The notes beneath the pieces are model-generated. The model searched no databases and was not told the DNA's origin. It saw nothing but the letters and a program-made list of their open reading frames with translations. Below, piece by piece: positions 39,136 to 53,494 of a stretch of DNA of 64,000 nt. The position numbers and the translations under genes are program-made. Each line of letters starts with the position of its first letter. The stretch's first letter is position 1. This stretch comes from Nitrospirota bacterium (GTDB lineage Bacteria; Nitrospirota; UBA9217), in the NCBI GenBank assembly GCA_963818475.1, contig CAWFSF010000002.1, positions 384,001 through 448,000 of the forward strand, given 5' to 3'.

Positions 39136-40269
39136 CTACTTTCTCAAAAACTCCTGCACCTGTTTCTTGATCTCCAGATGATGCACCGGAATATTCGGCA
39201 CATCCTTGTTCCCCGGAACCGTGAGAACATGGATAAAAGTTAATCCCTCACGCTGTCTTTTCATCACGTCGACCAACTCCTGCTCACCCGCAACTTTGAT
39301 CGTATTTCTGAAACCAAATCCCCGCGCAACCTGTTCAAGGTCCACGCAGGACGCAGCGAGCGTGGGTTGGTTTCCTGTTGACCCGTAGGCGCCGTTGTCG
39401 ATGGCGACGATCGTGAGGTTACGGGGATAAACGGAGGCTGCTGTCGCGAGCGTGCCGGGGTTCATGAGCAGGCTGCCGTCGCCGTCGATGACGACCACTT
39501 CTTTCTTTGATGAGAGAGCGATGCCGAGGCCGATGGGCGTTGCCATGCCCATGCTGCCGAGCATGTAGAAGTTCGACGGCTGGTGCTTGATCGCGTACAA
39601 CTCCTTGGACGGCCAGCCGAGATTACTGACAACGACTTTACCGTCAAGGTATGGTGAAATTATTTTGATGATATCATAACGCGTATAGGTTGGTTTCAGT
39701 GCGTCCTGCCGTTTCATGACAGCACTTCCGCATTCCGCATTCCGTATTCCGAATTCGGTTTTCACTGTTCCGCAATCAGAACCTTCCCACACTGCCGGGC
39801 TCATCAGGAATGCATGGACCATGTTCTCATCATACACATCCTTGAGCTTCCGGTCCACCTTGCTGATATCATCGATGCTGTGTATCTCTGTATAGGTGAT
39901 CCCGGCGCTTATGAGCATAGCAGGAAGCCGCCTGCCCATGGGGAACTGGGCTTCGATCTTTTCCTTGTAGATCCCGCGCTGGCTCACGAAGATGGCAAGG
40001 GGCAGTTCAAAGAATTGGGTAAGCGAGAGCAAGGCATTGATCATGTTCCCGATGCCCGAGCTCTGGACGAACATGGCAGGTCTTCTCCCTGCCAGCGCGG
40101 CGCCGGCGCAGATTCCCACGCCCTCTTCCTCCCTCGTCAGCGGAAGATGATGAAAGGACCCGGCAACCAGCTCGAGCAGGGTCTTGATCTTCTCGCAGGG
40201 AAGCGATGCGGTGAGATCCACCCCGTGCTTTTTCAGTATGGCTATGAGCTCTTCTTCAGGTCGTGGCAC
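39136..40269 (-). CDS. comDE: Sulfopyruvate decarboxylase, fused ComD+ComE
   Basis: Alpha part: SLPCEKIK, TREEEGVGICAG, QSSGIGNMINALLSL, SQRG. Beta part: VSNLGWPSKELY, NFYMLGSMG, TPP motif DGDGSLLMN...DNGAYGSTGNQ. Overlaps the cysteate synthase stop. Confidence 0.88.
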   Translation of the reverse strand: MPRPEEELIAILKKHGVDLTASLPCEKIKTLLELVAGSFHHLPLTREEEGVGICAGAALAGRRPAMFVQSSGIGNMINALLSLTQFFELPLAIFVSQRGIYKEKIEAQFPMGRRLPAMLISAGITYTEIHSIDDISKVDRKLKDVYDENMVHAFLMSPAVWEGSDCGTVKTEFGIRNAECGSAVMKRQDALKPTYTRYDIIKIISPYLDGKVVVSNLGWPSKELYAIKHQPSNFYMLGSMGMATPIGLGIALSSKKEVVVIDGDGSLLMNPGTLATAASVYPRNLTIVAIDNGAYGSTGNQPTLAASCVDLEQVARGFGFRNTIKVAGEQELVDVMKRQREGLTFIHVLTVPGNKDVPNIPVHHLEIKKQVQEFLRK

Positions 40270-41501
40270 AGCAGTTCCTCGATATCTTTCTCCGTCGCGC
40301 TCTTCGAGATGAACTTCGGCAGGACCATGTGGGTTCGCTTGACCTCCCGCAGCTTTGCCTCGCCGCCGCCGGTGATGTTCAGGAGAACGGTGTCGCTCTT
40401 CTTGATAGCGCCTTTCCGCACGGCATCTTTGAGCACGGCCACGGCGACACCCGATGCAGGGACAAGGTCGATGCCCTCGGCCGCGAGAAACTCGTCCATT
40501 CCTGCGTATACCGCCTCGTTCTCAACGCCGTACATCCCTCCTCCGGCAGAGGTGAGGAGATCGAATACGCCGCCTTGCACCGAGTAGGCAGGGTAACGGG
40601 TAGAAAGTACGCGCGTGGTGATCTGGCTGATGAGCTCCGGATCCAGGTCTTCGGTGAACAGCGAGCGGCTGCCCTTCTCCCAGGCATGCAGCATCGGCGC
40701 AAAGGGCAGGTTCTGGCCCAGGTGGAACTGCGGCAAGCGCGTGCCGAACCTGCCGTCCCTGATGAACCGCTCGGCCATCTCCCAGCCTCCGATAGCGCCG
40801 GTGCCGCTTCCGACCGCCTGGACATAATGGTCCGGCAGTTTTCCGATCTTCGAGACCGCCTCGAGCATGACGATGCCGAGCCCGTCCCGCTTCGCGATAT
40901 TCTTCACCCCTCCTTCGAAGGGGTAGCCCGTTGCCGAAGCGACGCGCCTCGCGACATCGATGGAATCCGAGTAGTCTCCGTCTCCCACGGCCAGCGTGGG
41001 CACCAAGGACGAGCTTTCCAGGTACCACATCTCCGCCAGACACATCCGCGGCACGACGATGACCACGGGAAAACCCGTTCTTGTCGAAAGGTGTGCGAAG
41101 GCCCGCGCCGTGTTCCCTGCCGAGGCGACGATCAGCCCGTTCACACCGTTCTCCCGGGCGTTCTGAATCACGACAGCAGCTTCGAACTCCTTGAAGGTGC
41201 AGGTTTCGAGCAGCGCCCCCTTCTCGGGCCAGTAACCGTTGAACGCGATGAAGAGCTGCTCGAGACCGAGATGCCTGGCAAGACCCTGGGACCGGTACAC
41301 CAGCGGCCCCGGCTGGACCGACGCGGGCTGATGGACCGGAAGCCAGTTGAACCTCCAGATGCCGTCGGCGCCGCTCTCCCTGAACTGGCGGTCATGATAC
41401 TCTGTCACCAGGAGAGCGTCCTTGCAGTGCTCGCAGAAGGCGCAGTAGGAGTTCTCCAGCGTCTTTCCGCATTTCCTGCATCGTATGGAATAATGGCTCA
41501 T
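40242..41501 (-). CDS. Cysteate synthase (threonine-synthase-like PLP enzyme, MA3297 type)
   Basis: N-terminal Zn ribbon, FNGYWPEKGA..TCTFKEFEA (PLP Lys), ASAGNTARAF, EGGVKNIAKRDG, HYVQAVGSGTG, QNLPFAPM, LNITGGG. Confidence 0.88.
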   Translation of the reverse strand: MSHYSIRCRKCGKTLENSYCAFCEHCKDALLVTEYHDRQFRESGADGIWRFNWLPVHQPASVQPGPLVYRSQGLARHLGLEQLFIAFNGYWPEKGALLETCTFKEFEAAVVIQNARENGVNGLIVASAGNTARAFAHLSTRTGFPVVIVVPRMCLAEMWYLESSSLVPTLAVGDGDYSDSIDVARRVASATGYPFEGGVKNIAKRDGLGIVMLEAVSKIGKLPDHYVQAVGSGTGAIGGWEMAERFIRDGRFGTRLPQFHLGQNLPFAPMLHAWEKGSRSLFTEDLDPELISQITTRVLSTRYPAYSVQGGVFDLLTSAGGGMYGVENEAVYAGMDEFLAAEGIDLVPASGVAVAVLKDAVRKGAIKKSDTVLLNITGGGEAKLREVKRTHMVLPKFISKSATEKDIEELLCHDLKKSS

Positions 41502-41530
41502 GATTTTACCCTCTAAAAATAAAACTATCT

Positions 41531-41795
41531 CACCACGGAGTCACGGAGACACGGAGAAAGAGATTGGTTTTAAAAATCTGGTACAGAATGATTCCACGGA
41601 ATTCAAGTTTTATGGTCTCGTAAAAAGTCCTTAGTGCTTTCATCGCGAGGAGCGGAGCGACGCAGCAATCTCGTTTACCAGACACATACGAACTGCGAGA
41701 TTGCTTCGCTACACTCGCAAAGACGGCTGAGCAGACTTATTAAGCAAGCCTCGAACTTGAAGCGTCCTCCTCCGTGTCTCCGTGCCTCCGTGGTA
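41531..41795. repeat. 9-bp-periodic inverted-repeat element (CACGGAG type) with a nested stem-loop repeat at 41640-41724
   Basis: CACCACGGAGTCACGGAGACACGGAG ... CTCCGTGTCTCCGTGCCTCCGTGGT. Inner TCATCGCGAGGAGCGGAGCGACGCAGCAATCTC ... GAGATTGCTTCGCTACACTCGCAAAGAC. Confidence 0.85.
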
Positions 41796-43017
41796 AATTC
41801 GTTTTTTTGCTTTCCTCTACCAACCCGCTCACCAGCTCCATGATGTCGGTGATCTTGATCTGTTTGTCGTGCCCCTGCATGGCCTCGTTCACCTTGGCAT
41901 AACACGCAGGACAGCTCAAGATCAGCCGGTCGGCCTTCTTTGCCACTGCCTCATCGATCGTTTGTCTGCCCATCTTGATGGCATTCTCGTGGTACACCTT
42001 GCGCGCCGCGCCGCCCGAGCCGCAGCAGCGCGAGTTCAGGCCGTGGCGCTCAAACTCGATGACCTTAACGCCCGGAATGCTCCGGAGAACGTCACGCGGT
42101 TCTTCGATGACGCCGACTCCCCGGGAAAGATAACAGGGGTCGTGATAGATCACCGTCTCGCGAAGTTCTTTCGTGATGCGCAGCGTTCCCGCCTTGACCG
42201 CGCCCGCAACGAACTGGGTGATATGCCGGATCGCAAAAGGAAGCTCTTTCCCATAGAACGCGGGCCAGTCCCTGCTCATGATGTTCACGCAGCAGGGACA
42301 GGAGCAGACCAGCGTTTTTACGCCCCTCGCCTCGTATCCCGCCACCAGCCTCTTGACCAGGTCTTCGAGCAGATCGTGCTGGCCGGTGATGAAGAGCGGG
42401 AAACCGCAGCACACCTCTTCCTCCGGCGGCAGCATGGTGAAGGGCGCTCCGATCGCATTCAGGACGAGCACGTCGCCGCGCACCATCGTCTGCGCTTCGT
42501 ACGCGCCCGTGCATCCTGCATAGTAGGCAACATCGGCGCGCTCGGCGACCCTCACGTTCCCGGGGAACCAGGGTTTGTATCGTTCTGCCGCCGGCTTTTC
42601 GTAGGGGTTGCCGCTTTTCGTAATGGCCTGCGGCAGGTTCGCCTGGACGCCGATCGGGCCGAGGCCGCGTTTTACCATTTCCTTCCGGAGCATGGGCCAG
42701 AGCCGCTGCGTGAAGATGCCGACAGGGCAGTTCTTCCCGCAGGCGCCGCAGGTAGTGCACTCGTACACGGCCTTGGTAAAGTCCTCGAGAAGCCTGGGGT
42801 CAACCGCTCCCGCGCCGAAAAGCTTCGCCTTGAGGCCGTCCGTGGACCGGATGAACTCCCGGAACATGCGGATCTTCTCGGGCGGAGAGACCGCTGCGTT
42901 TCCCGTCACGTCCTGGACCGGGCAGTGCTTGAGGCACTCGCCGCATTGGGTGCAGGCATCGATCTCCAGGACCTGCTTCGGTGAAAGCTCTTCCGTGAAT
43001 GAACGTTTATTTTTCAT
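41740..43017 (-). CDS. HdrD-like Fe-S oxidoreductase (2x[4Fe-4S] plus two CCG domains)
   Basis: CTQCGECLKHCP, CTTCGACGKNCP; YAGC..CCGFP..SCPCC; YHDPC..CCGSGG..SCPAC. Confidence 0.88.
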   Translation of the reverse strand: MKNKRSFTEELSPKQVLEIDACTQCGECLKHCPVQDVTGNAAVSPPEKIRMFREFIRSTDGLKAKLFGAGAVDPRLLEDFTKAVYECTTCGACGKNCPVGIFTQRLWPMLRKEMVKRGLGPIGVQANLPQAITKSGNPYEKPAAERYKPWFPGNVRVAERADVAYYAGCTGAYEAQTMVRGDVLVLNAIGAPFTMLPPEEEVCCGFPLFITGQHDLLEDLVKRLVAGYEARGVKTLVCSCPCCVNIMSRDWPAFYGKELPFAIRHITQFVAGAVKAGTLRITKELRETVIYHDPCYLSRGVGVIEEPRDVLRSIPGVKVIEFERHGLNSRCCGSGGAARKVYHENAIKMGRQTIDEAVAKKADRLILSCPACYAKVNEAMQGHDKQIKITDIMELVSGLVEESKKTNLPRRHGDTEEDASSSRLA

Positions 43018-43693
43018 GCATCACCAAGGGAAGCGCCAGTTCCCGTTTCTCCGCTTCAAGCATCACCAGCGGAGCGGTCAGAATATGGGTTGGAAGAAAA
43101 GGGATCAGGACCAGAACCAGGGAAAAATGCAGCAGGAACAGGATGCTGCCCGGTACTGCAGCCGGCGAGAAGCACAGTATCCCTTGGATGAACAATTTCA
43201 CCATCACGATATCGGCCCTGAAAACGGTGTTCATCAGAAGGCCGAGTGAACTGATCACGAGCAAAAGGACCAGAAGGAACATATTGGCAGGCGAGGAATA
43301 TTTTTCCTGGACGGAGAACCGCCGGATGACAAGGATATAGACCAGTGACAGAGGAAGGACGTAGCCGGCGATCAGTCCGGGGACCTGGACCCACCATACC
43401 CACTCCGGGACGGTGTGGAGAAAATACTTCAGATGCCGCAGGACAACGAGCAGGAACGAAACATGGAAGACCCACTCGCCGAACCACAGCGCGGGGTTGA
43501 CCATTAAAAGCCTCCAGAAGAAGACCACGTCCCGTACCGATAACGCACATGCCTTCGCCGACAACGGCGGCGCCGTCCCCGCGATCGCAGCGGGACGCGC
43601 CACCGCCTTCCACCAGAGCAGTGCATGCAGAAAGAACCGTATGCAGAACGCCGCATACACGCCGTACGCGGCAACGATCAACAACGTACCCAT
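43007..43693 (-). CDS. NarI/HdrE/DsrM-like membrane b-type cytochrome subunit
   Basis: About 5 hydrophobic helices with His at WVFHVSF, LRHL, LLHF and PTHIL; overlaps the start of the HdrD-like gene. Confidence 0.75.
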   Translation of the reverse strand: MGTLLIVAAYGVYAAFCIRFFLHALLWWKAVARPAAIAGTAPPLSAKACALSVRDVVFFWRLLMVNPALWFGEWVFHVSFLLVVLRHLKYFLHTVPEWVWWVQVPGLIAGYVLPLSLVYILVIRRFSVQEKYSSPANMFLLVLLLVISSLGLLMNTVFRADIVMVKLFIQGILCFSPAAVPGSILFLLHFSLVLVLIPFLPTHILTAPLVMLEAEKRELALPLVMHEK

Positions 43694-43771
43694 AGGCGTC
43701 CTTTCACAAGGAGATAGTATGAGTATAACTCACCGTCCTCGTGTGAGATAGGGGGACAGCAGCCGGCGACC

Positions 43772-44089
43772 TCATTTCTCCCGGACGAATTCGATCCGCA
43801 CGTCCTTCGGCACGTTCATGCCCGCTTCCGTCTCGATGGCCTTCAGGATGGCGGAAGGCACCGGGCAGGCGACGTGCTTGAGATGCTTCGCCGCGGACAG
43901 GTAGATCGGGTTGTCGCGGAAACCTGTGAGCGTCACCCGCTGGTCCACGGTCGCGATATCCGCAAGCATCTTCTGCACCATCTCGCAGGCCGTGTCCAGG
44001 GAGATTGCGATCTTCTTATCCTTCCCTTTCTCCGCCGTGATGGTGACGGTGAACCCGCATGCGCCTGAATTGACGATGACTTTGGTCAT
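43772..44089 (-). CDS. Small conserved Cys-containing protein (DUF6951-like)
   Basis: VNSGACGF, TACE, KHVACPVPSAILKAIE.EAG motifs. Confidence 0.7.
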   Translation of the reverse strand: MTKVIVNSGACGFTVTITAEKGKDKKIAISLDTACEMVQKMLADIATVDQRVTLTGFRDNPIYLSAAKHLKHVACPVPSAILKAIETEAGMNVPKDVRIEFVREK

Positions 44090-44128
44090 TGTTGCTCCGT
44101 CCGAAAAAAACAACATCAAGGATCCTTT

Positions 44129-44217
44129 GACACTGATCAAGGCCGATTAACCTATGATAGGGGCAGATATCAGTGAATCATGCCTTTTTTCATAAATAAT
44201 CCGCCTTTATCAGTGTC
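44129..44217. repeat. Degenerate 9-bp-periodic inverted-repeat element
   Basis: GACACTGATCAAGGCCGATT ... AATCCGCCTTTATCAGTGTC. Confidence 0.55.
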
Positions 44218-44254: not shown

Positions 44255-46231
44255 TCATCCTTTGATCTCCACCGTAGCCCCTTGCTTTACGAGCAGCTCC
44301 TTCAGGTTCGGGAACTTGTCCTTCATGTGCGGGATGTGCATGGCCTGCATGAACTCCTTCTCGAAGGCCGGGTCCGTGGCGATCTCGACGAATTCGACCC
44401 AGCGGGCCCGTTCGTTCGCTTCCCGCCGCTTGTCCCGGTTCAGGAGCGCTATGCGCGAACCGTCGCCGGCAGCGTTGCCCACGGCGTAGACCATGTCGAT
44501 GGGGCAGTCCGGGAACATGCCGAGCGTGAGCGAAGCCACTTTGTCGATGTGGCTCCCGAAGGCGCCTGCCAGTATCACGCGGTCGAGCTTGGTGATGCCG
44601 AGCCGCTTCATCATCAGTTTTGCGCCTGCATAGAGCGCTCCTTTGGCTAGCTGGAGCGCGCGCACGTCGCCCTGGGTGATGGTGATGTCGTGGCCGATGG
44701 ATGTCTCCGCAGCCCAGGCAAGCACGTACTCCGGTTTACCGTCCACGTCCTTCCGTACTCGATTGGTGCCGAGGTCCAGGACGAACCTGCCGCTTTTATC
44801 AATGATGCCGGCCTTGAACATTTCGGCCACCACGCCGATGATGCCGGAGCCGCAGAGGCCCTTGGCATTCACCTTTTCGATATGCGTGTGCCAGTCCGCC
44901 TTGCCGATGACCTTGTACCGGGGCTCCTTCGTGGCGGGGTCGATCTCGACGGTCTCGATGGCGCCCGGTGCTGCGCGCATGCCGAACTTGATCTGGGCGC
45001 CTTCGAAGGCCGGGCCGGTTGCGCAGGACGTGGAGCAGACCTTGTTCCGGTTGCCCATGAGCAGCTCGCCGTTCGTGCCGATGTCGATGATCAGGACCAT
45101 CTCGTCCTGGTTGTAGGGTTCTTCCGCGATCAGCACGCCCACGTTGTCGGCGCCCACGAAGCCCGCTTCGATCGGCAGCACGTGAATGTAGGAACCTGGA
45201 TTGATCCGGAGGCCCAGGTCGCGCGCCTTGATATCGAGCGAGTTCTGGACCGCAGGGATGAAGGGCGACCGGCCGATGTATTCGGGGTTCAGGCCCAGGA
45301 AGATGTGGTGCATGGCCGTATTGAATACGATCGTCAGGTCGTCGATCATGAACCCGGGGTTCAAGTCGTCCTTTTTTATGTCCACGGAAACGCGCTCGAT
45401 GATCTCGTTCAGGCCCTGGATGATCGCCTTCTGCATGGTGTCCAGGCCGCCCGGATTGCTCATGGCAAAGGTGATGCGCGACATCACGTCCTCGCCGTAG
45501 GGCACCTGGGGGTTCATCATGGATTCGGTGTTCACGACCTTGCCCGTGCTCAGGTCCGTCAAATAGCCCACGCAGGTCGTCGTGCCGACGTCCACGGCAA
45601 GGCCGTAGCTCGCCTCGACAAAGCCCGGCTCCACCTTGATGATCTCCCTGTCCATCCAGACCGTGACCGTTGCCTTCCACGCGTCCTTTCTGAGAACGTC
45701 CTGGAGGTCTTTGAGCACCAGGTAATCGAACGTAAGCCCTGTAAGCTTGTAGTTGTCCTCAAGGTATTTCAGCACCCGTTCCCAGTCGCCCGTGGTCATA
45801 TCGTGGAGTGACGGTTGTGCGAGTTCGACATTGTACTTCTTTACCGCCGGGTCGAGCTTGATCGTGAGCTCTTTCGCTGCCTTCCTGACGACCTGTTTGC
45901 CCGCGCGCGAACGTTCGGGTACGAAGACCTTGACGTCGCCGTGGATCTCGGCCGTACACGACAGCCTGATGCCCGGCCCGTCCTCGGGCTTGATGTGCTT
46001 TTTCTCCGCTTCGGAGAGCGGGGAGAGATGGGCCATGCCCGATTCGATATTGTCCTTTTCGAAATAGCCTTCTTCGATCCTGACCTTGCACTTGCCGCAG
46101 ACCTTTTTGTTTCCGCAGAGCGCTTCGATGTCAACACCCAGGGACTGGGCCGCTTCAAGGATGGTCTTGCCGTCCTCTACTTCGCCGCGGCTGCCCGAGG
46201 GCTGGAATATCACTTTGTGTTTCTTGAGCAT
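44255..46231 (-). CDS. ATP-dependent reductive activator of corrinoid proteins (RACo/RamA, ASKHA domain with N-terminal 2Fe-2S)
   Basis: LCGNKKVCGKC..RLSC, GLAVDVGTTT, NPQ..YGEDVMSRI, GFVGAD, IDIGTNGE, ATGPAFEG, LAGAFG, VGNAAG. Confidence 0.93.
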   Translation of the reverse strand: MLKKHKVIFQPSGSRGEVEDGKTILEAAQSLGVDIEALCGNKKVCGKCKVRIEEGYFEKDNIESGMAHLSPLSEAEKKHIKPEDGPGIRLSCTAEIHGDVKVFVPERSRAGKQVVRKAAKELTIKLDPAVKKYNVELAQPSLHDMTTGDWERVLKYLEDNYKLTGLTFDYLVLKDLQDVLRKDAWKATVTVWMDREIIKVEPGFVEASYGLAVDVGTTTCVGYLTDLSTGKVVNTESMMNPQVPYGEDVMSRITFAMSNPGGLDTMQKAIIQGLNEIIERVSVDIKKDDLNPGFMIDDLTIVFNTAMHHIFLGLNPEYIGRSPFIPAVQNSLDIKARDLGLRINPGSYIHVLPIEAGFVGADNVGVLIAEEPYNQDEMVLIIDIGTNGELLMGNRNKVCSTSCATGPAFEGAQIKFGMRAAPGAIETVEIDPATKEPRYKVIGKADWHTHIEKVNAKGLCGSGIIGVVAEMFKAGIIDKSGRFVLDLGTNRVRKDVDGKPEYVLAWAAETSIGHDITITQGDVRALQLAKGALYAGAKLMMKRLGITKLDRVILAGAFGSHIDKVASLTLGMFPDCPIDMVYAVGNAAGDGSRIALLNRDKRREANERARWVEFVEIATDPAFEKEFMQAMHIPHMKDKFPNLKELLVKQGATVEIKG

Positions 46232-46401: not shown

Positions 46402-47040
46402 TTATCCTGCAATCGTTTCTTTCCTCCCATACGGACAAATATTGATACACAGCCCGCAGTTGGGCTTGCCGTCAGTTGCCCGCTTGGTCGATTTGTGGCT
46501 TCTGCAGTCGCTGAGCTTCACCAGTTCAACAAAAGGCGAGGACCGGGACCATTCCCGACCCGTGATCGCATGCGAAGGACAGTAGGTCATGCAGAGCGTG
46601 CAATCGCCGCACAAGCTGTGTTCCATGGGCGCATCCGGCCGGAAACGGGCATCGGTCAGGACCGTGACAAGCGACAGGCGCGGACCGTGGTCGATGTTGA
46701 TAAGAAGCCCGTTCTTCCCGATCCAGCCCAACCCGGCGGACGTGGCCGCCATCTTGTGATTGAACAGGGAGTAGAGCTTCGAGATGCACGTGCCCTTCCT
46801 GCGGTCCGAGTCCGGCGGGATGGCAAGGGTGCGATGCCCCCGGGCCTTCAGGAACCGGACCGCCCGCTTCTCAAGCTTCGCGAGCAGGCTGAGGGTGTCT
46901 TCATTCAGCCTCCGGTCCACACCGATGGACACCGCCCGGGCCAGATGGGCGATCTCGCCGCTCAGGTACCCGTCGAGGCCTGCGAACCCCACGACCGTTG
47001 CGCCGTGGTCCAGCAGTTCTTTCCTGAGCGAGGTCTTCAT
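46402..47040 (-). CDS. QueG/reductive-dehalogenase-like 4Fe-4S protein
   Basis: NHKMAATSAGLGWIGKNGLLI..HGPRL, CGDCTLCMTYCP, CGLCINICPYG. Confidence 0.85.
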   Translation of the reverse strand: MKTSLRKELLDHGATVVGFAGLDGYLSGEIAHLARAVSIGVDRRLNEDTLSLLAKLEKRAVRFLKARGHRTLAIPPDSDRRKGTCISKLYSLFNHKMAATSAGLGWIGKNGLLINIDHGPRLSLVTVLTDARFRPDAPMEHSLCGDCTLCMTYCPSHAITGREWSRSSPFVELVKLSDCRSHKSTKRATDGKPNCGLCINICPYGRKETIAG

Positions 47041-47729
47041 TTCGCTTTCTTGGCTTCCACCTCATCCTTCATCTTTTTGAGCGACTCGATCATGTTGATG
47101 GCGTCCTTCAACGCGTTGGTCGCGTCCTTGGCGTAGCCGTCGGCGCCGTACTTGTCAGCCACGTCCTGGGACACCGGGGCGCCGCCGATCATGATCTTGA
47201 CATGCGGGTTCTTGGCCCGGAGATCGTCGATGACCTTCTTCATGCCGGTCATGGTCGTGGTCATCATGGCCGAAAGGCAGACGAGGTCGGAATCGGTCCG
47301 GAGCTGCTCGGCGACGAATTTGTCCAGCGGCACATCCCGGCCCAGATCGTAGACCGTGAAGCCGGCCACGTCGAACATCATCTTCACGATGTTCTTGCCG
47401 ATATCGTGCACGTCGCCTTCCACGGTCCCGATAACGACCGATCCCTTCACGCCCAGGTCCAGCTGCTTCACGTGGGGCTTCAGGATGTCCAGGCCCGCGT
47501 AGAGCGCGTCTGCGCACATGAGCAGCTCGGGCACGAAGTACTCCTGCGCCTCGAACATCTTTCCCACTTCCACCATGCCGGAGACGAGTCCGTTGAAGAT
47601 GGCGTCGTTCGCTTCCATGCCCACGTCCAGCGCCTCCTGCGACGCTTCCTTGGACGTGTCTTCGTCGTACTGGATCACCGCGTTCCGCAGTTTTGCCAGG
47701 AGCTCTTTCTTTTTTTCTTCCGTAACCAT
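47037..47729 (-). CDS. Methyltransferase cognate corrinoid protein (MtaC/MtbC-like)
   Basis: B12 motif GDVHDIGKNIV, DLGRDVP, LSAMMTTT, GGAPV; N-terminal cap EYFVPELLM. Confidence 0.95.
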   Translation of the reverse strand: MVTEEKKKELLAKLRNAVIQYDEDTSKEASQEALDVGMEANDAIFNGLVSGMVEVGKMFEAQEYFVPELLMCADALYAGLDILKPHVKQLDLGVKGSVVIGTVEGDVHDIGKNIVKMMFDVAGFTVYDLGRDVPLDKFVAEQLRTDSDLVCLSAMMTTTMTGMKKVIDDLRAKNPHVKIMIGGAPVSQDVADKYGADGYAKDATNALKDAINMIESLKKMKDEVEAKKAK

Positions 47730-47733: not shown

Positions 47734-48753
47734 TCACCTCCGGTAATTTTTAACTTCGTCCATCATGGCCTTCATGTTCTCCGGCGGCACCGTGGGCCAG
47801 ATATCGCAGCCGGGCCAGACCGCGCTCACGCCGTCGTCCATGCACTTCCTGATGGTCTGACGCACCAGGTCCGGCGTACCGGCCACCAGCACGTTGTAGG
47901 GATCGTAGTTCCCGAAGACCAGCGCTTTGGGGCCGAGCTTCTTGCGCGTTTCGGCAACATCGTTCTTCTGGTCCACGCTGATCGCCTTGGCGCCGCTTTC
48001 GGCCATGAACGGAACGATATCGTTCGTCTTGCCGCAGATATGGATCACGCTCGGCACGGAGAGGTTCTCGAAGATCTTCTTGAGGTACGGCAGGATGAGG
48101 CTCTTGAAAACCCGCGGGGAAAGCACGTCCGACGTCGCCCCCATCTCGCGCACCGTGATGAAGTCCACGCCTGCCTTCTCGTACTCCTTCGCCACCTGGA
48201 TGATCACGTCCGCCATCTGGTCGAGCAGTTTCCCGATCTTGTCCGGCTTTTTAAAGGACAGCTTCAGCAGGTCGTTCAGCTCCATGATCTGGCCGGCCAG
48301 CGTGAACGGCCCGAGCACGTAGGAACCGACGGCTGCTTCAGCGCCGATGTCCTTTTTGAGCAGTTTGATGACCTCGACCATGAGCGGCACCCTGCCGCGC
48401 CCGGTAAGGCCCGTGGGGAGCGCAATGTCGAGCTCCGCCTCGTTGTGGATCAGCTTTTTCTTGATCGTGGGGTACAGCAGGTCCTCGGAATGGGCATACA
48501 CGTTGATCTCGCAGCCCATTGCCTCGGCCTCGATGCAGAGGTCGAAGGGCGCCACGCCGCATTCGAAACCGAAGAGCTTGTAGGTCGACGCAGCTGCCGC
48601 TGCCATCATCTTCGCGTCAAGATGAGTAGCCGCGAAATTCTGGCCGAGCGCTTTGAGGCCCTCGGTCGTTACATTGCCCATGCCGCTGAAGCAGGGAGGT
48701 CGGTCGACCTCCTCGCCTGCAAACAGCTTCAGTACTCGTTCTCGTGAATTCAT
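47734..48753 (-). CDS. MtaA/CmuA-family methylcobamide:thiol methyltransferase (UroD fold)
   Basis: PFDLCIEAEAMG, GPFTLA, Zn ligands HICG and PGCD, FGNYDP. Confidence 0.88.
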   Translation of the reverse strand: MNSRERVLKLFAGEEVDRPPCFSGMGNVTTEGLKALGQNFAATHLDAKMMAAAAASTYKLFGFECGVAPFDLCIEAEAMGCEINVYAHSEDLLYPTIKKKLIHNEAELDIALPTGLTGRGRVPLMVEVIKLLKKDIGAEAAVGSYVLGPFTLAGQIMELNDLLKLSFKKPDKIGKLLDQMADVIIQVAKEYEKAGVDFITVREMGATSDVLSPRVFKSLILPYLKKIFENLSVPSVIHICGKTNDIVPFMAESGAKAISVDQKNDVAETRKKLGPKALVFGNYDPYNVLVAGTPDLVRQTIRKCMDDGVSAVWPGCDIWPTVPPENMKAMMDEVKNYRR

Positions 48754-48808
48754 TATTATGGAACCTCCTTGAAATACAGTATCGGAATCAAATGGACCTA
48801 AAGCTATT

Positions 48809-48940
48809 ACCACGGAGACACGGAGGCACGGAGAAAGGCAATTAACTTTATGCAAGAACAGAAAATAATTTTCTGAGATTCTTAAAGCAAAATACGTGTT
48901 GGCCTTAACGTCTTCTCCGTGTCTCCGTGCCTCCGTGGTG
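48809..48940. repeat. 9-bp-periodic inverted-repeat element (CACGGAG type)
   Basis: ACCACGGAGACACGGAGGCACGGAGAA ... TTCTCCGTGTCTCCGTGCCTCCGTGGT. Confidence 0.85.
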
Positions 48941-48948
48941 AAAAGGCT

Positions 48949-49896
48949 CTATTTTCTCGCTGCTCCTGCCGTTAACTTTCCTAAAAATTCGTTAAAGTAC
49001 TTCTTAATAGGAATATTCTCGTTGGCCGAGATCGTTTGTGTTTCATCGTAGACCAGGGTCGAGAGCAGGATCTGCGCTGCAGCCACGGCCGGGAAGATGC
49101 GCGGCGCCGTAACGATGGGGCCATAAAAATTAAAGTCGCTCCAGATCGCAGAGGACATTCCCTGCACCACGGCGTCCATGGCCTTGAACCCGTCCAGGCT
49201 CCAGATGGTCTTCGCTTCTTTCCACATGTGCGTGCCGTTCGAGTAGGCGCCGCCGCAGGGAAGGCCAAGCTTCTCCTTGATGAGCCTGTTGGCGACGAGC
49301 GAGAACGACGTCGCGGGCAGGTTCATGACCGAGGTGTCGACGATGACGGTCTCGAAATCCCCGGCGCCCTGGTCGAGCAGCTTTTCGAGCGATTTCAGCC
49401 GCCCCGCCGGCGTCTGGTCCTGGTCGTCGAAGGCCTGGACCACCACGTGTTTGATCCCCAGGTCCTTGAGCTTCTGTACCTGCCCCTTGATGTCCTTGTC
49501 CCAGGGCGTGATGCTGTTGTACAGGAACTTGTCCTGCAGACCCAGCTTGGCCACGTACTCGGTTGCCTCTGCCCGCTTCTCGGCGACCCACATGTCGATG
49601 CCGAAGGGCATCGTGGTAGTCTCGCGATAGAAATCGACATAGATCTTCGCTTCTTCCGCAGAGTTCGCCACCATGGCCACCATGGACGGAATGCCGGTGG
49701 AGAGCGAGAGCTGTTCCTGCGTTTTGATCAGCTCCGTCGCCTTCACACGGTCGAAGTTGCCTTTCCGGTCAGTCACGATCCGGTCCTTGTTATGGAACAT
49801 GGACGCGATCAAGAGAGGCGGGTTCTCCCCTGCCTGGCCGCCGACCTTGATCCCGTTGATGTTGAAAATCTTCTGTTCGCGGCTGAATCGAAACAT
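48949..49896 (-). CDS. mtrH: MtrH/MtxH/MtgA-family methyl-pterin:corrinoid methyltransferase
   Basis: MFRFSREQKIF.I.GIKVGGQAGENP..LIASMF, LYNSI, GLPCGGAYSN..W, YGPI..A..IFPAVA. Confidence 0.85.
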   Translation of the reverse strand: MFRFSREQKIFNINGIKVGGQAGENPPLLIASMFHNKDRIVTDRKGNFDRVKATELIKTQEQLSLSTGIPSMVAMVANSAEEAKIYVDFYRETTTMPFGIDMWVAEKRAEATEYVAKLGLQDKFLYNSITPWDKDIKGQVQKLKDLGIKHVVVQAFDDQDQTPAGRLKSLEKLLDQGAGDFETVIVDTSVMNLPATSFSLVANRLIKEKLGLPCGGAYSNGTHMWKEAKTIWSLDGFKAMDAVVQGMSSAIWSDFNFYGPIVTAPRIFPAVAAAQILLSTLVYDETQTISANENIPIKKYFNEFLGKLTAGAARK

Positions 49897-49955
49897 CGTT
49901 GTCCTCTTTTCTTGTCTCTATCTGGTGGAACCGCTGGAATGTCTAAATCTATATC

Positions 49956-50170
49956 CACCACGGAGGCACGGAGTCACGGAGAAATGCTGGCTTTAAACTT
50001 TCACGGCTGTCATTGCGAGGAGCGTTTTATGCGACGCGGCAATCTCGAACTTGTTGTTTTGTTGAACTACGAGATTGCTTCGCTTCGCTCGCAAAGACGG
50101 CTAAAGGGCTTTTCAACAACCTGCTGGATCTGCAGTCCGTGATTTTGCTCTCCTCCGTGTCTCCGTGGTT
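49956..50170. repeat. 9-bp-periodic inverted-repeat element (CACGGAG type) with a nested stem-loop repeat at 50009-50098
   Basis: CACGGAGGCACGGAGTCACGGAG ... CTCCGTGTCTCCGTGG. Inner GTCATTGCGAGGAGCG..GCGACGCGGCAATCTC ... GAGATTGCTTCGCTTCGCTCGCAAAGAC. Confidence 0.85.
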
Positions 50171-50249
50171 AATAAGGTTTTTATGTACTGTATAAAAGTA
50201 TGATTTCAAAAGGCGGGGGAGCCTTCGAAACGCTCCCCCATGATGATCG

Positions 50250-50696
50250 TTAAAACACGCCGTGGTCGAACTTCGGCGCCGGGAGATACTCCCACTTCTC
50301 GCCTTTCCTGAACTTGGTTTCTATGTCGAGGCACTTTAAGGCGTACTCGAAAGCATAGGGAATGCCGGGACCGCCCGGCACAAAGCCGCCGAGGATCATG
50401 CCTACCGACGCCGCCTCGAAGATCTCCATCGTGGTCGCGCCGGCATTGATCGCCGGGATCACGTGGATGATGCACCGGGGCGAGCAGTAGGCAACGCCGC
50501 CCGACATGAACATCAACTCCTTCACCTTGCGGGAAAGCGCCCCGTCTGCGAAAATGCTCGCATAGAAATCTGCGAAAGTCCTTCCCGGTTCGGGTGTCAC
50601 GGTGTTGATGACCTGGAACATGCGCGGTACGAACCCGCACTGCTGCTTCATGTAATCGTTACATTCTTCCGTCGTCATCTTTTTCTTGTCAGCCAT
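50250..50696 (-). CDS. Carboxymuconolactone decarboxylase/AhpD-like protein
   Basis: DGALSRKVKELM, CSPRCIIH (CxxC..H), AINAGAT..EI.EA. Confidence 0.85.
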   Translation of the reverse strand: MADKKKMTTEECNDYMKQQCGFVPRMFQVINTVTPEPGRTFADFYASIFADGALSRKVKELMFMSGGVAYCSPRCIIHVIPAINAGATTMEIFEAASVGMILGGFVPGGPGIPYAFEYALKCLDIETKFRKGEKWEYLPAPKFDHGVF

Positions 50697-50827
50697 TTGT
50701 GTTTCCCTCCTCTTGCCCTGGCGCTGTCTGCGCCCGGGAAACTTGGTTTTTCAACGCCTCACGTACCTTCGTGCAACATACTTCAAATTCAGTCTGAAAC
50801 GCCTTCACCTCTCTCTCATCTGAAAGT

Positions 50828-50876
50828 CCCCCTCACCTTTATCCTCTCCCCCGAGGGGAGAGGGTAGGGTGAGGGG
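50828..50876. repeat. REP-like palindrome CCCCTCACC..CCTCTCCCC-GAGGGGAGAGGG..GGTGAGGGG
   Basis: Imperfect hairpin in an intergenic space between co-oriented genes. Confidence 0.7.
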
Positions 50877-50922
50877 TTTCGTTCTACTCCTAGTTGTACA
50901 GATTTTCAGCATGCATGTTTCT

Positions 50923-51954
50923 CTAATATTTCCATTCATGCGCCACCTGGATGAACTTCTGGATGTTCTCGTACGGAACGGTCGGGGGTATGTCGCAGCC
51001 CGGCATCAGCACGAACCCGCCGTCGATGCCGGCGGCCTTGATGATGTCCGTACAAGCGTTCTCCACGTCCTGGACCGTGCCGTTCAGCATGATCTTAACG
51101 GGGTCCACGTTCCCGCCGAAGCACATCTTGCCGTGAAGCGCCTCTTTGGCCTTCGCAATGTCCGTCTTGTGGTCCAGGCTGATGCAGCTGGCGCCGGTCA
51201 GCGGGAACAGGTCCAGCCGGTCCGTGGTGTTCCCGCAGATATGGACCAGCGTATGGACGCCCTTTGACTTTGCCCAGTCCGTGAACTTTTTGAGTGCGGG
51301 CACGGCGAACTTCTCGAACTGTTTCTTGGAAATGAGGTCGCCCGAAGCAGTAGGGTCTGCGAGGCTGATGACCTCGAGGGTCTTGTCCGCAACGATCGGC
51401 TCGTAGAGATGGATCAGAATATCGGTTGCGAAGTCGACCACCTTCTCGACAAAGGCCGGTTTCTTGAACGTGGCCTTCATCATCGCCTCTTCGCCCACGA
51501 GCCGCGCGCCGAGGGTGAAGGGTCCCCAGGCCGTCATGGTCACCACGTAATTATTGCCGATCTTCGCCTTGGTCTGGCGCAGGGCCTTAATGACGGTCGT
51601 GATCACCTCGTCCTTGTCGAGGTCGCTCAGCTTGAGCCTCGCAAGGTCCTCCTCGGATGAGACGAAATGGTTCTCCAGGTCCGGCGCACCCACCTCCCGC
51701 CACTTGATCTTTCCGCCCAAGGCCGTCGCATGAAAGTTGTTGTAGCCCGAGCCCGGGTAAACAATATCGCACTTCAGCGTCTCGCTCATGGCGACCAGCA
51801 TGTCGGTCATCTTGTTCGCGTCCTTTGACAGGGCCTCGAACGACGTCCCGTGCCGCTTGATGCTCCACATGCCCGCGCCGAACAGGGTCACCGGGAGCCG
51901 GTCGGGTTTTCCTCCTTCGTAAGCTTTCAGGATCACTTCCTTCGGTGTCATCAT
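50923..51954 (-). CDS. Second MtaA-like UroD-family methyltransferase
   Basis: WGPFTL, DPTASGDLIS, HICG, ISLDHK, GGNVDPV, MPGCDIP. Confidence 0.88.
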   Translation of the reverse strand: MMTPKEVILKAYEGGKPDRLPVTLFGAGMWSIKRHGTSFEALSKDANKMTDMLVAMSETLKCDIVYPGSGYNNFHATALGGKIKWREVGAPDLENHFVSSEEDLARLKLSDLDKDEVITTVIKALRQTKAKIGNNYVVTMTAWGPFTLGARLVGEEAMMKATFKKPAFVEKVVDFATDILIHLYEPIVADKTLEVISLADPTASGDLISKKQFEKFAVPALKKFTDWAKSKGVHTLVHICGNTTDRLDLFPLTGASCISLDHKTDIAKAKEALHGKMCFGGNVDPVKIMLNGTVQDVENACTDIIKAAGIDGGFVLMPGCDIPPTVPYENIQKFIQVAHEWKY

Positions 51955-51989
51955 GAACATCTCCCTTCGTACCAAGTGGAATCACACCA

Positions 51990-52319
51990 TCAAGACGCGA
52001 TGCTGTGGATCGTTCTTTTGAACTCTTCAAGGTCCAGCGGCGCCCCCATGCCGCCGGCACGGTCCTGCTCCCATTCGCCTCCCATGATCAAGATGGGCAT
52101 GCCGGGCGAGACAGACCTGATGACCTGCGCTGCCTCCTCGGCAGACATGCCGAAAGGCTCGGAATCCACGATGACGAAACCGTAAAGCGCTTGGAGGACC
52201 TTCTTCACCGCAAGCGCCGGATGCTCCACGGTTTCGACAGTGTACCCCTCGTCCCGCAGGACCCCATAGAGGTTCTTGATCAGCAGGGGATTGGAAGAGC
52301 AGAGAAGAATGTTCTTCAT
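51990..52319 (-). CDS. Degenerate receiver-domain protein
   Basis: Receiver-like layout (ILLC..GYTVETV..VIVDSE..PILIMGG) lacking the N-terminal acidic pair and the conserved Lys. Confidence 0.65.
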   Translation of the reverse strand: MKNILLCSSNPLLIKNLYGVLRDEGYTVETVEHPALAVKKVLQALYGFVIVDSEPFGMSAEEAAQVIRSVSPGMPILIMGGEWEQDRAGGMGAPLDLEEFKRTIHSIAS

Positions 52320-52333
52320 AACAAGGGATAGTT

Positions 52334-52349
52334 TGCAATAGCTGTGCCA
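52334..52349 (-). promoter_or_regulatory. sigma54 (-24/-12) promoter heading the methyltransferase/CoM cluster
   Basis: TGGCAC-AGCTA-TTGCA on the minus strand, matching the consensus with correct spacing. Confidence 0.8.
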
Positions 52350-52554
52350 GTGATTCCAGCCGGATCAGACACAGTACTTTCGTCGCAGCGTGTTAAGCGG
52401 CAGTGATGCCCTCTCTGACAATCGCAGCATGGCTGTACTGAAATACTCCGGGAAATACGATATACGTCATTAGAAGATCAGTTCAACAGGGAGCGATAGA
52501 AACAACGCGGACTAAAATTGGAGGTTGAGGTAATCACTAGCGGGAAAATAGCAG

Positions 52555-52583
52555 AATAATGCCCCACCCTGCGGGGCATTATT
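52555..52583. terminator. Hairpin downstream of metF
   Basis: AATAATGCCCC-ACCCTGC-GGGGCATTATT. Confidence 0.6.
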
Positions 52584-52603
52584 CCCCAAACTGTGGAGGC
52601 GGA

Positions 52604-53494
52604 TCACGCGGCATTCGGTGTCTTCGTTATTTCCTTGCCGAGGGTTGCCAGGATATCTATCATCGAGTCAGCGCGATTCATGGTGTAAAAGTGAAAGTAG
52701 TTCACGCCGTGCCTCATCAGATCCTCGACCTGTTTCACGGCGAACTCCACGCCGAGTTTCCTCATGTCCTCGGGCAGATCGCTCACGGGCTCCATTCGGT
52801 CCAGGATCTCCTTCGGGATGGTGGCGCTGCAGACCCCGGCAAACTCCTTGATCCGTTTGCAGTCCACGATCGGCATGATGCCGGGTATGATGGGGATGGT
52901 GATGCCGGCACTGGCGGCCCGGTCCCGGAACCGGTAGAAATAGCGATTATCGAAGAACATCTGGGTGATCGCGAAGTCCGCGCCCTGGTCGATCTTCTGC
53001 TTCGTATATTCCAGGTCCTTCTCGACGTTCGGCGACTGCGGATGCCCTTCGGGATAGACCGCCACGGCAAGAGAAAAACGGCCGGTTTTCGCTAGAAAAT
53101 CGACGAGGTCCCGGGCGAACAGGAAGTCGCCCTTCGATGCATCGAACCCGGACAGGGCCTTCGGCGGGTCGCCGCGCAGGGCGAGGATGTTGTCGATCCC
53201 GCTTGCTTTGAACTCCTCCACGATGGCGCCGATGGATTCCTTCGTCGCGCCGATGCAGGTGAGGTGGGACATGAGGGTGAGTCCGCTGTCCTCACGAAGC
53301 CACCGCAGGGCATTCAGGGTCCTTTCCTGTGTTGTTCCACCCGCCCCATAGGTCACGGACACATAGAGCGGATCGAAGACCTTTAAGTCCGCCACGACCG
53401 TGAGGAATGCGGGCTTCCCCTCGGCATTCTTCGGCGGAAAGACTTCAAAAGCGATCCCCCGCTTTTGCGTTTTAAGGACATCCTTTATCTTCAT
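52604..53494 (-). CDS. metF: Methylenetetrahydrofolate reductase
   Basis: FEVFPPK, SVTYGAGG, HLTC, LALRGD, VYPEGHP, ITQMFFD, PGIMP, HFYTMN. Confidence 0.96.
   Translation of the reverse strand: MKIKDVLKTQKRGIAFEVFPPKNAEGKPAFLTVVADLKVFDPLYVSVTYGAGGTTQERTLNALRWLREDSGLTLMSHLTCIGATKESIGAIVEEFKASGIDNILALRGDPPKALSGFDASKGDFLFARDLVDFLAKTGRFSLAVAVYPEGHPQSPNVEKDLEYTKQKIDQGADFAITQMFFDNRYFYRFRDRAASAGITIPIIPGIMPIVDCKRIKEFAGVCSATIPKEILDRMEPVSDLPEDMRKLGVEFAVKQVEDLMRHGVNYFHFYTMNRADSMIDILATLGKEITKTPNAA

Follow-up and report, generated by a model that had tools for sequence, protein, structure and literature searches.

Coenzyme M is usually viewed as a cofactor that serves methanogens and archaea that oxidise alkanes, together with a few aerobic bacteria that oxidise alkenes and have an unrelated route to it. 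What, then, are the genes of an archaeal-type coenzyme M precursor pathway doing in a Nitrospirota bacterium, in one cluster with genes for corrinoid methyl transfer and for an HdrED-like membrane disulfide reductase? The locus that raises this question lies in a stretch of 64,000 nucleotides (the window; G000:C2:384001-448000) from the genome of a Nitrospirota bacterium (G000; 4.66 Mb in 7 contigs, 91% complete, 6.2% contamination), in which a listing of open reading frames (ORFs) combined with Pfam and NCBIfam searches gives 14 co-oriented genes on the minus strand between positions 39136 and 53494. All 14 ORFs are full length when compared with their homologues. The original prediction, made from the letters of the window, placed these genes correctly as to identity, limits and shared orientation but spoke of 13, where 14 are listed and present. 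From the evidence set out below we judge the odds to lean slightly towards an inducible system that moves methyl groups between tetrahydrofolate and a thiol or thioether by way of a self-made sulfonate thiol, probably coenzyme M. That the product is coenzyme M itself we would put a shade below an even chance.

The two genes that bear most directly on coenzyme M are the last of the cluster:

40242-41501, minus strand: cysteate synthase (cysS); TIGR03844 at 459.9 bits against a cut-off of 324.9.
39136-40269, minus strand: fused sulfopyruvate decarboxylase ComDE; beta half TIGR03846 at 232.6 bits (cut-off 221.5), alpha half TIGR03845 at 184.4 bits (cut-off 147.95).

By model score and by phylogeny the product of cysS is a member of the cysteate synthase family, predicted to form L-cysteate from O-phosphoserine and sulfite. 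The pyridoxal phosphate enzyme had been named so, in preference to threonine synthase, in the original prediction, and this is borne out: the best threonine synthase model gives 97.1 bits against a cut-off of 303, residues F103-K104 are conserved in the cysteate synthase alignment, and the protein groups with archaeal cysteate synthases, apart from the ThrC paralogues of G000, which are encoded by separate genes and reach only 28.7-32.4 bits with the cysteate synthase model. ComDE is likewise predicted to be a sulfopyruvate decarboxylase and not a phosphonopyruvate decarboxylase, again as first proposed, with both halves over their cut-offs and the phosphonopyruvate decarboxylase model TIGR03297 (212.8 bits) under its own of 312.5. 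In the phosphoserine ("type 2") route of methanogens sulfoacetaldehyde is the committed precursor of coenzyme M. The Nitrospirota pair resembles that route, as it occurs in Methanosarcinales and Methanomicrobiales, in its two equivalog-level enzymes, in gene order (cysS then comDE is also the arrangement in most archaeal loci) and in the partial overlap of the genes, comDE overlapping the end of cysS by 28 nt. It differs in having a bacterial host, in lying within a methyltransferase/Hdr operon, in the lack of any MMP16/COG1900 match (see below), and in the placing of the Nitrospirota enzymes, a deep clade of their own that is joined to the Hydrothermarchaeota and not to the methanogens.

Upstream of these genes, eight others would encode a corrinoid methyl-transfer chain, its activation system and two small conserved proteins:

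50923-51975, minus strand: MtaA-family methyltransferase 1 (MtaA1); Pfam URO-D at 1.3e-60, TIGR01463 at 192.9 bits, under the cut-off of 235.4.
50250-50696, minus strand: AhpD/carboxymuconolactone-decarboxylase-like (CMD) protein; Pfam CMD at 4.3e-06, C-S-P-R-C...H motif.
48949-49896, minus strand: MtrH-like protein; NF002142 at 325.6 bits, cut-off 287.
47734-48855, minus strand: MtaA-family methyltransferase 2 (MtaA2); NF004889 at 275.3 bits (cut-off 244), TIGR01463 at 253.7 bits (cut-off 235.4).
47037-47729, minus strand: corrinoid (B12-binding) methyl carrier protein; Pfam B12-binding and B12-binding_2, TIGR02370 at 208.2 bits, just under the cut-off of 215.3.
46402-47040, minus strand: QueG/RDH-like Fe-S protein with CxxCxxCxxxCP and CxxCxxxCP motifs, resembling the ferredoxin part of QueG and of reductive dehalogenases.
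44255-46231, minus strand: RACo-type ATP-dependent reductive activase; Pfam RACo_C_ter at 1.4e-93, with Raco_middle, RACo_linker and Fer2.
43772-44140, minus strand: DUF6951 small protein with three cysteines; PF22263 at 104.9 bits.

Both MtaA-like proteins keep the thiol-type zinc motif: within the URO-D fold their H-x-C...C residues (HICG and PGC) align with those of the M. mazei MtaA structure 4ay7, which MtaA2 matches at 7e-46. According to the account of the superfamily by Kountz and Balskus (PMC10418091), from which the assignment of zinc binding to the His-Cys-Cys residues is taken, this triad marks the S-methyltransferases, and the O-demethylases replace the cysteines. The two proteins share 26-33% identity with the Methanosarcina paralogues. 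In a tree of 22 rows MtaA1 forms a clade of its own with a protein of Ca. Pyrohabitans (98/98), apart from the Methanosarcina MtaA and MtbA proteins, and MtaA2 groups with a third copy that some relatives have (100/100), in a clade that joins Methanosarcina MtaA and MtbA (93/93). The homologues of MtaA2 align only from residue 28-35 on, and its true start probably lies near residue 29, at about position 48771. As a separate observation, three relatives carry a third MtaA-family gene outside the cluster whose product is 51-52% identical to MtaA2 (G023:C95:25148-26155, G007:C9:13439-14428 and G019:C61:88817-89812).

The best PDB matches of the MtrH-like protein are 8z9u_B (1.1e-48), on which we found no literature, and the methylcorrinoid:tetrahydrofolate methyltransferase 6sj8 of D. 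hafniense (Desulfitobacterium; 2.5e-38). Because of the match to 6sj8, the presence of FTHFS in G000 and the failure to find there the methanopterin-route marker Mch, its methyl acceptor is likely to be tetrahydrofolate. The corrinoid protein is 75-100% identical among related loci and the AhpD-like protein 80-96% identical among Nitrospirota loci, falling to 59% in Ca. Pyrohabitans. DUF6951 is shared with Ca. Pyrohabitans and with several methanogens, namely M. acetivorans (our control genome), Methanosarcina sp. DH2, Methanolobus and Methanococcoides, and was not found in Methanoperedens BLZ2; in the three methanogen loci examined its gene lies near genes for corrinoid proteins, RamA-like proteins or AhpD-like proteins.

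Between this module and cysS stand two overlapping genes that would encode a membrane-linked disulfide reductase:

43007-43693, minus strand: HdrE/DsrM/NarI-like membrane protein; weak match to NCBIfam DsrM at 1.9e-14, 53.5 bits against a cut-off of 300.
41740-43017, minus strand: HdrD-type Fe-S protein with two CCG domains and 2x[4Fe-4S] (Fer4_8).

The HdrD-like protein is 39% identical to a 409-residue Methanosarcina protein and to two Methanoperedens proteins and 44% identical to its Ca. Pyrohabitans homologue, compared with only 32% for its best paralogue in G000. It has the same set of NCBIfam hits as the 409-residue Methanosarcina protein, with TfrB, LdhH and GlpC all under their cut-offs, and we take that Methanosarcina protein to be the functional HdrD. 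For the HdrE-like protein Pfam gave no match even at an E value of 1. Histidines are seen by eye in its predicted helices, and the HdrD-paired HdrE homologues of one related genus (g39, to which we return) match Pfam Nitrate_red_gam; it is putatively a b-type cytochrome that links the complex to the quinone pool.

The genes of the cluster overlap or abut, and the elements at its upstream end decide where the transcription unit begins:

51990-52319, minus strand: receiver-like protein, product of the first operon gene; Pfam Response_reg at 25.2 bits, below the cut-off of 30.2.
52334-52349, minus strand: sigma-54-type -24/-12 promoter, TGGCAC-N5-TTGCA, an exact consensus some 15 nt ahead of the start codon (ATG) of the receiver-like gene.
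52553-52585, minus strand: terminator-like hairpin 3' of metF, with a 15-pair stem, 7 of the pairs being G-C, and a T-rich tail after it.
52604-53494, minus strand: methylenetetrahydrofolate reductase (metF); TIGR00676 at 323.7 bits, cut-off 293.7.

When the region upstream of the operon was read by eye in the window and in 16 related loci, GGCA[CT]-N5-[AT]TGC stood at the same spot in 16 of the 17, the exception being L051 with TTGG; the strict sigma-54 pattern matched in 8 of the 16 related loci. Related loci likewise have the receiver-like gene in front of MtaA1 (40-76% identity), and its product, which has no acidic pair after strand 1, is a degenerate receiver. The module of genus g39 is directly preceded by genes for a GAF-PAS histidine kinase and a sigma-54 activator of the NtrC type. 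The unit is, as predicted from these signals and the gene spacing, a sigma-54-dependent operon of 13 genes running from the receiver-like gene to comDE, presumably induced by its substrate. The original prediction had counted metF as a member of the co-oriented unit. We rejected it as an operon gene because the terminator-like hairpin and the promoter separate it from the rest and because, among the 13 related loci whose upstream flank measures 2.7 kb or more, it adjoins the receiver-like gene in only three (L026, L027 and L034).

Is the association of com genes and methyltransferase genes an accident of one genome? In G000 and 40 relatives, cysteate synthase exceeds its cut-off in 11 of the 41 genomes, all from the family of G000, and homologues of MtaA2 and MtrH are likewise found in 11 of the 41. 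The full order of receiver-like protein, MtaA1, AhpD, MtrH, MtaA2, corrinoid protein, Fe-S protein, RACo, DUF6951, HdrE, HdrD, cysS and comDE recurs in six of the relatives' ten loci, and the other four are cut by contig ends. A scan with one genome per species gave 80 cysS loci, 23 of them in named Nitrospirota metagenome-assembled genomes (MAGs) at 60-88% identity. In 17 of these 23, corrinoid-methyltransferase genes lie directly upstream of cysS; two more are cut after hdr/DUF6951, two are too short, and two (L047 and L048) have cysS-comDE alone, that of L047 beside lepA, lepB and riboflavin genes. The closest named homologues of the synthase are annotated as "cysteate synthase [Nitrospirota bacterium]", and the closest named genome records are MAGs of Nitrospirae, Nitrospirota, Thermodesulfovibrionia and Thermodesulfovibrionales.

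We then have the count from an even sample of 401 Nitrospirota genomes, with thresholds of E <=1e-80 for cysteate synthase and E <=1e-60 for the MtrH homologue. Cysteate synthase occurs in 68 of these genomes (over its cut-off in 67) and the MtrH homologue in 74; 66 genomes have both, 2 only cysS, 8 only the MtrH homologue and 325 neither. The two genomes with cysS only (G001 and G242) are 65% and 68% complete. Among the eight with the MtrH homologue only, G006, G054 and G253 have a contig end inside the cluster (G054 with a comDE fragment on another contig end), G219 and G245 carry the whole cluster including cysS but frameshifted throughout, and the remaining three belong to genus g39. The families in which cysteate synthase gave no hit include large ones (0 of 76, 0 of 40 and 0 of 28 genomes). 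The linkage of com genes and methyltransferases, a central claim of the original prediction, is thus conserved across Nitrospirota, in one predicted sigma-54 operon, with genus g39 as an exception. Two irregularities were seen in passing: G156 has two copies each of cysS and of the MtrH homologue (on C40 and C16), which could be a duplication or a mixture of strains in the bin, and in G014 the MtaA2 homologue is spread over two overlapping frames (C9:219393-220428, locus L030) in an otherwise complete cluster.

The phylogeny places the nearest relatives of these genes in archaea that lack MCR (methyl-coenzyme M reductase). Among 1.84 billion cluster representatives cysteate synthase had 193 matches at E <=1e-30, and outside the Nitrospirota cluster the full-length matches reach no more than 49% identity. 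We built a careful tree of 42 rows from 79 usable loci and the window, without an outgroup, and read it as unrooted splits because, in a larger quick tree, the branches of the G000 ThrC paralogues used as outgroup had length 10 and left the root unsure. The 17 Nitrospirota rows form one split (100/100), and together with two Hydrothermarchaeota rows they are separated from the 23 others, which comprise methanogens, anaerobic methanotrophic archaea (ANME), Methanoperedens, Promethearchaeota, Spirochaetota, cyanobacteria and Aminicenantes (98/95); the quick tree agrees. ComDE is 53-55% identical to its Hydrothermarchaeota homologues and 40-51% to those of other archaea. In addition, nine bacterial genes of the cysS family at 42-45% identity have no adjoining comDE (Spirochaetota L077, L087, L088, L090, L099 and L100; cyanobacteria L104 and L109; Aminicenantes L107). 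They form one clade (100/99), and since comDE is missing beside them their cysteate probably serves another purpose.

The parallel extends beyond the com genes, and nearly all parts of the cluster have their closest homologues in the MCR-less Hydrothermarchaeota. Ca. Pyrohabitans JdFR-17 has cysS and comDE at 48% and 55% identity (L060); one of its contigs carries an Fe-S fragment together with MtaA1-like (47%), AhpD-like (59%) and HdrD-like (44%) genes, another carries RACo (63%), MtrH (44%) and DUF6951 (37%), and the corrinoid protein (45%) is found with a further MtaA-like gene. For the methyltransferase parts this is the one Hydrothermarchaeota genome examined, the second (L061) confirming cysS-comDE only. 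Carr et al. (2019, PMC6775978) describe Hydrothermarchaeota genomes without mcr and consider an alternate fate of methyl-S-CoM possible, in the passage of that paper drawn on here. Beside the com genes of Ca. Pyrohabitans, a gene for an NMT1/SsuA-like substrate-binding protein (L060:12368-13279) overlaps the end of comDE.

The host genome may offer a destination for methyl groups. A folate-type Wood-Ljungdahl gene set, the search for which the original prediction had suggested, is encoded 25-33 kb from the operon, with CdhC/acsB at C2:359300-359769 and FTHFS at C2:350836-352516, both in pieces. A dsrA-type gene (G000:C6:2058388-2060509) lies in three frames whose pieces score 311.6, 58.2 and 163.4 bits, none alone reaching the cut-off of 392.85. 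Because dsrA, CdhC/acsB, FTHFS and ftsK are each split over two to four frames or pieces in an assembly of 7 contigs, the breaks look like long-read indel errors and not like decay into pseudogenes. In keeping with the earlier expectation of no methanogenesis, mcrA was not found in G000, a genome whose 91% completeness keeps absences there from being proof. A search of sequencing runs for this DNA listed none of RNA, and the 20 DNA runs that it listed contained no more than 0.10 of the sampled words each.

Given these components, we propose the following scheme for an anaerobic Nitrospirota host of the sulfite/sulfate-reducing type. A first module, consisting of cysS, ComDE and a general aminotransferase encoded elsewhere, would convert phosphoserine and sulfite to sulfoacetaldehyde, whose reductive thiolation might be carried out by an unrecognised enzyme or proceed partly without an enzyme in sulfidic cells. 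In a second module a corrinoid protein, kept active by RACo and the Fe-S protein, would be loaded and unloaded by the two His-Cys-Cys MtaA enzymes, which as a class use thiols, thioethers or selenols and which here might act one on the sulfonate thiol and the other on a methylated sulfur substrate, or both on the two halves of a thioether. The thioether would be a methylated sulfur compound, the methylated form of the self-made sulfonate thiol, or both. The MtrH-family enzyme would exchange the methyl group, carried as methyl-Co(III), between the corrinoid and tetrahydrofolate, and methyl-tetrahydrofolate could pass to the Wood-Ljungdahl enzymes for oxidation or assimilation. As a third module the HdrED membrane complex would tie the thiol/disulfide couple to the quinone pool, either keeping the thiol reduced or handing its electrons to the membrane. 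The net direction could be from thioether to folate, which would be catabolic, or from folate to thiol. No methane would be formed, because MCR is lacking.

Several observations weigh against this scheme, above all against coenzyme M as its thiol. The last enzyme of the pathway was not found: the check for comF that had been called for gave at most 28 bits for MMP16 (ComF) in G000 against a cut-off of 363.95, and a search for PF01837/COG1900 gave no match in G000 and none in its family (0 of 25 genomes). The only two of the 41 genomes searched that have PF01837/COG1900 belong to another family, and both are without the cluster. A look for last-step candidates next to cysS-comDE in Ca. Pyrohabitans (L060), L047 and L048 turned up a histidine kinase, a permease, an NMT1-like binding protein and housekeeping genes, and nothing else. 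Chadwick et al. (2025, PMC12068725) report that at high sulfide a Methanosarcina mutant in MMP16 can still grow when no coenzyme M is supplied, so the gap need not be fatal in a bacterium that produces sulfide, and it remains a gap. The assignment of the methyltransferases to coenzyme M is also short of what the models ask: MtaA2 stays under the equivalog cut-offs (MtaA 249 against 400, MtbA 191 against 600), and MtaA1 stays under them too (MtaA 160 against 400, MtbA 167 against 600) as well as under the subfamily cut-off, whereas six Methanosarcina paralogues pass, five with the MtaA model and one with the MtbA model. The parts of the operon can moreover be had separately. Three genomes of genus g39 (G051, G060 and G103, 81-97% complete) have no cysS or comDE anywhere and keep the genes from the receiver-like protein to DUF6951, from which it follows that the methyltransferases do not strictly need a home-made sulfonate, and locus L055 has the module and cysS-comDE without hdrED between them. 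Energetics are a further difficulty. In methanogens the transfer of a methyl group from methyl-coenzyme M to a pterin runs uphill. With a soluble system the reverse direction would be favoured, and for methyl-coenzyme M there is no obvious sink when MCR is lacking. Of the interpretation first placed on the locus, the linkage of com and methyltransferase genes is supported, the last step to coenzyme M has no recognised gene, and metF is not a member of the operon.

The g39 genomes are not without an HdrED pair. Some 3 kb upstream of the module, on the opposite strand, they encode an HdrD of 46% identity and its NarI-family partner, and in G051 (C144; L124:4847-8590) there is a second HdrED pair, 70% identical to the HdrD of the window, beside a TauE/SafE-family transporter gene that may provide a route of sulfonate uptake. 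Apart from this, the module in g39 (L117:10682-13811 of G060, L118 and L121) is followed by genes for a radical SAM protein, a SAM-dependent methyltransferase and a B12-binding radical SAM protein in the place of hdrED-cysS-comDE.

In its most far-reaching form the proposal would have widespread anaerobic Nitrospirota produce true coenzyme M through the phosphoserine route of archaea, with a new synthase (a protein of the operon, for example the HdrD-type complex or the small cysteine proteins) in place of ComF, and run an MCR-independent methyl-coenzyme M cycle that links methylated sulfur compounds, tetrahydrofolate and the quinone pool and is shared with the MCR-less Hydrothermarchaeota by inter-domain transfer. 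This we regard as possible and put forward tentatively, with the balance of probability somewhat on the other side.

The explanation that otherwise survives best is that the module is a demethylase for methyl sulfides or methyl selenides (methanethiol, dimethylsulfide, dimethylselenide or a similar compound) that feeds tetrahydrofolate and is related to the mlp clusters, with the sulfonate serving not as a methyl carrier but as a compatible solute, taurine, isethionate or a co-regulated redox thiol. The His-Cys-Cys sites suit sulfur or selenium substrates generally, in the terms of the mlp preprint (PMC10418091); and the g39 module without com genes, the missing ComF/COG1900, the scores of both MtaA proteins under their equivalog cut-offs and the position of the MtaA1 lineage apart from Methanosarcina MtaA/MtbA would all fit such an enzyme system. 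What a plain demethylation would leave without a role is the HdrD-type disulfide reductase, and it would not account for cysS-comDE following hdrED directly, within one sigma-54 operon, in almost every genome that has the cluster, nor for the fact that the same families travel together in Hydrothermarchaeota; the mlp clusters themselves, as described in the preprint's main text, have no tetrahydrofolate methylase, whereas the Nitrospirota cluster has one. We consider the demethylase unlikely, though well worth keeping in view.

A sulfonate thiol that carries electrons and not methyl groups is a further alternative. The thiol and HdrED would then form an electron carrier or a protective system, on the lines of a low-molecular-weight thiol buffer or of DsrC/DsrMK, and pass the electrons of methyl oxidation to menaquinone. 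Such a role would fit an HdrD-type protein closest to archaeal HdrD, the position of hdrED directly before cysS-comDE in most loci, and the conservation of the AhpD-like protein and cysteine-rich DUF6951 in the operon; in a methanogen, overexpression of comDE with more coenzyme M protects from oxidative stress, as stated in the portion of PMC12713407 relied on here. It would leave two thiol-type MtaA enzymes unexplained, however, and metF, whose product would free the electrons of methyl-tetrahydrofolate, does not belong to the operon and seldom adjoins it. L055 does without hdrED and keeps the rest. We think this improbable.

It is very improbable indeed that the com genes are misnamed, the one encoding a threonine synthase and the other a phosphonopyruvate decarboxylase that belongs to a phosphonate pathway. 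Both proteins share superfamilies with those enzymes, and the score with the phosphonopyruvate decarboxylase model, although under its cut-off, extends over the full length; set against this are the wide margin of the cysteate synthase score over that for threonine synthase, the passing of both sulfopyruvate decarboxylase models, the separate ThrC-like genes of G000 and the methanogen-like order of cysS and comDE. An assembly or binning artefact that put archaeal DNA on a bacterial contig, for which the estimated contamination of the bin might be cited, can be dismissed as next to impossible, because the cluster lies on a contig of 850,496 bases (~850 kb) between the bacterial genes for LolA, FtsK and UppP, with a G+C content of 0.55-0.60 continuous with that of the left flank, recurs in 66 of the 401 genomes and in 23 named Nitrospirota MAG records, and has cysteate synthases that form a Nitrospirota clade of their own.

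Returning to the methyl-transfer scheme with a self-made sulfonate thiol, we compared the operon with the systems that it most resembles. The MtaA/MtbA/MtsA systems of methanogens, with RamA, have in common with it the URO-D fold, the His-Cys-Cys residues, a cognate corrinoid protein and an ATP-dependent activase, and DUF6951 and AhpD-like genes lie near them in Methanosarcina, Methanolobus and Methanococcoides; in contrast, the Nitrospirota cluster has no substrate methyltransferase of the MtaB, MttB, MtbB or MtmB type but an MtrH-type pterin methyltransferase instead, and no MCR downstream. Type 1 mlp clusters (Kountz and Balskus 2023 preprint, PMC10418091) are alike in having several SCMT-like His-Cys-Cys methyltransferases, a corrinoid protein and RACE/RACo and in their strictly anaerobic hosts, and they are proposed to act in methyl-sulfur or methyl-selenium metabolism; as there described they have no Hdr genes and none for coenzyme M biosynthesis, and the MtrH-type enzyme is a feature of the Nitrospirota cluster. 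The main text of that preprint does not contain Nitrospir*, cysteate or "coenzyme M biosynthesis". With the bacterial O-demethylase or methyl-X:tetrahydrofolate systems (MT1, corrinoid protein, MtrH-like MT2 and RACo) the operon shares the MtrH match to 6sj8, the corrinoid protein and RACo, but the zinc cysteines replaced in those demethylases (PMC10418091, in its treatment of the superfamily) are both kept in the Nitrospirota URO-D partners. HdrDE of cytochrome-containing methanogens and complexes of the DsrMK/HmeCD type likewise combine a CCG Fe-S subunit with a small membrane subunit encoded by overlapping genes, although the membrane subunit here has no Pfam family and only a weak DsrM match, and the quinone in Nitrospirota would be menaquinone in place of the methanophenazine of methanogens. 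The Xanthobacter xcb pathway of alkene oxidisers is comparable as a possible bacterial source of coenzyme M, but it starts from phosphoenolpyruvate via ComA, in aerobes metabolising alkenes, and nothing of it is found in the Nitrospirota cluster (PMC9457059, for the pathway as outlined there).

All components of the operon come from known families, and what sets it apart is their combination, its occurrence in a bacterium and the lack of a recognised ComF. We found no description of cysS/ComDE together with MtaA-type proteins and HdrDE in Nitrospirota or in any bacterium, in a literature search that had supplementary tables and most subscription journals outside its scope; the lists of 367 mlp-cluster organisms (PMC10418091) and Tables S13 and S15 of PMC6775978 are among the supplementary material outside that scope that may be relevant. 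MtaA is mentioned in passing for one Thermodesulfovibrionia MAG in the text of PMC9326234, and cysS in one bacterial MAG, interpreted there as serving taurine synthesis, in PMC12019592.

Found in 66 of the 401 Nitrospirota genomes sampled, or about one in six, the operon would point to a bacterial, non-methanogenic use of coenzyme M or of a close analogue, and if this is true coenzyme M would be a cofactor of bacterial anaerobic methyl metabolism too. 2-Bromoethanesulfonate is in use as a methanogen-specific inhibitor, and caution with it would be advisable. The operon would also imply a missing coenzyme M synthase to look for, and it would offer a candidate for an unknown anaerobic, non-methanogen route that consumes or produces methylated sulfur compounds in sediments, wetlands and groundwater. 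For MCR-less lineages such as the Hydrothermarchaeota it would give a concrete fate to methyl-coenzyme M, the question raised in the passage of Carr et al. (2019, PMC6775978) cited above.

Around the operon the window holds the following genes, whose bacterial character (LolA, FtsK and UppP) had been recognised from the start and is confirmed, a chemoreceptor gene being a further bacterial one:

12638-14869, minus strand: MtrC/MtrF-like multihaem cytochrome.
21526-22434: LolA.
23890-25101: class I/II aminotransferase, with nothing that links it to the com pathway.
32010-34219: FtsK, in pieces.
34293-35099: UppP/BacA.
38457-39062, plus strand: protein of 201 residues and no family, convergent with comDE.

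The protein of 201 residues recurs in related loci, tblastn finding it just beyond comDE in 17 related-locus entries (E 6e-17 to 7e-91), of which three are copies of a single contig, and giving two more matches that a contig end truncates. Pfam assigned it no family, and a relaxed scan gave nothing usable. In the Atlas it fell with Nitrospirota "hypothetical protein" clusters (0.96-0.97), with weak leads (0.87-0.88) to NikA-like proteins and RHH_3, and it may be a ribbon-helix-helix regulator. A pyridine-nucleotide-disulfide oxidoreductase (36278-37513) and a DJ-1/PfpI protein (37670-38260), on the strand opposite to the cluster, were considered and set aside as members, as they occur only in the loci of the closest relatives. 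An ORF of 2009 residues occupies window positions 25450-31479 on the minus strand. At the other side, just past metF and OsmC, lies an integrase-core (rve) gene (54396-55184), to the right of which the G+C content falls from about 0.55-0.60 to 0.46-0.50 (window 54000-64000); gene and drop together may mark an insertion element or the border of an island.

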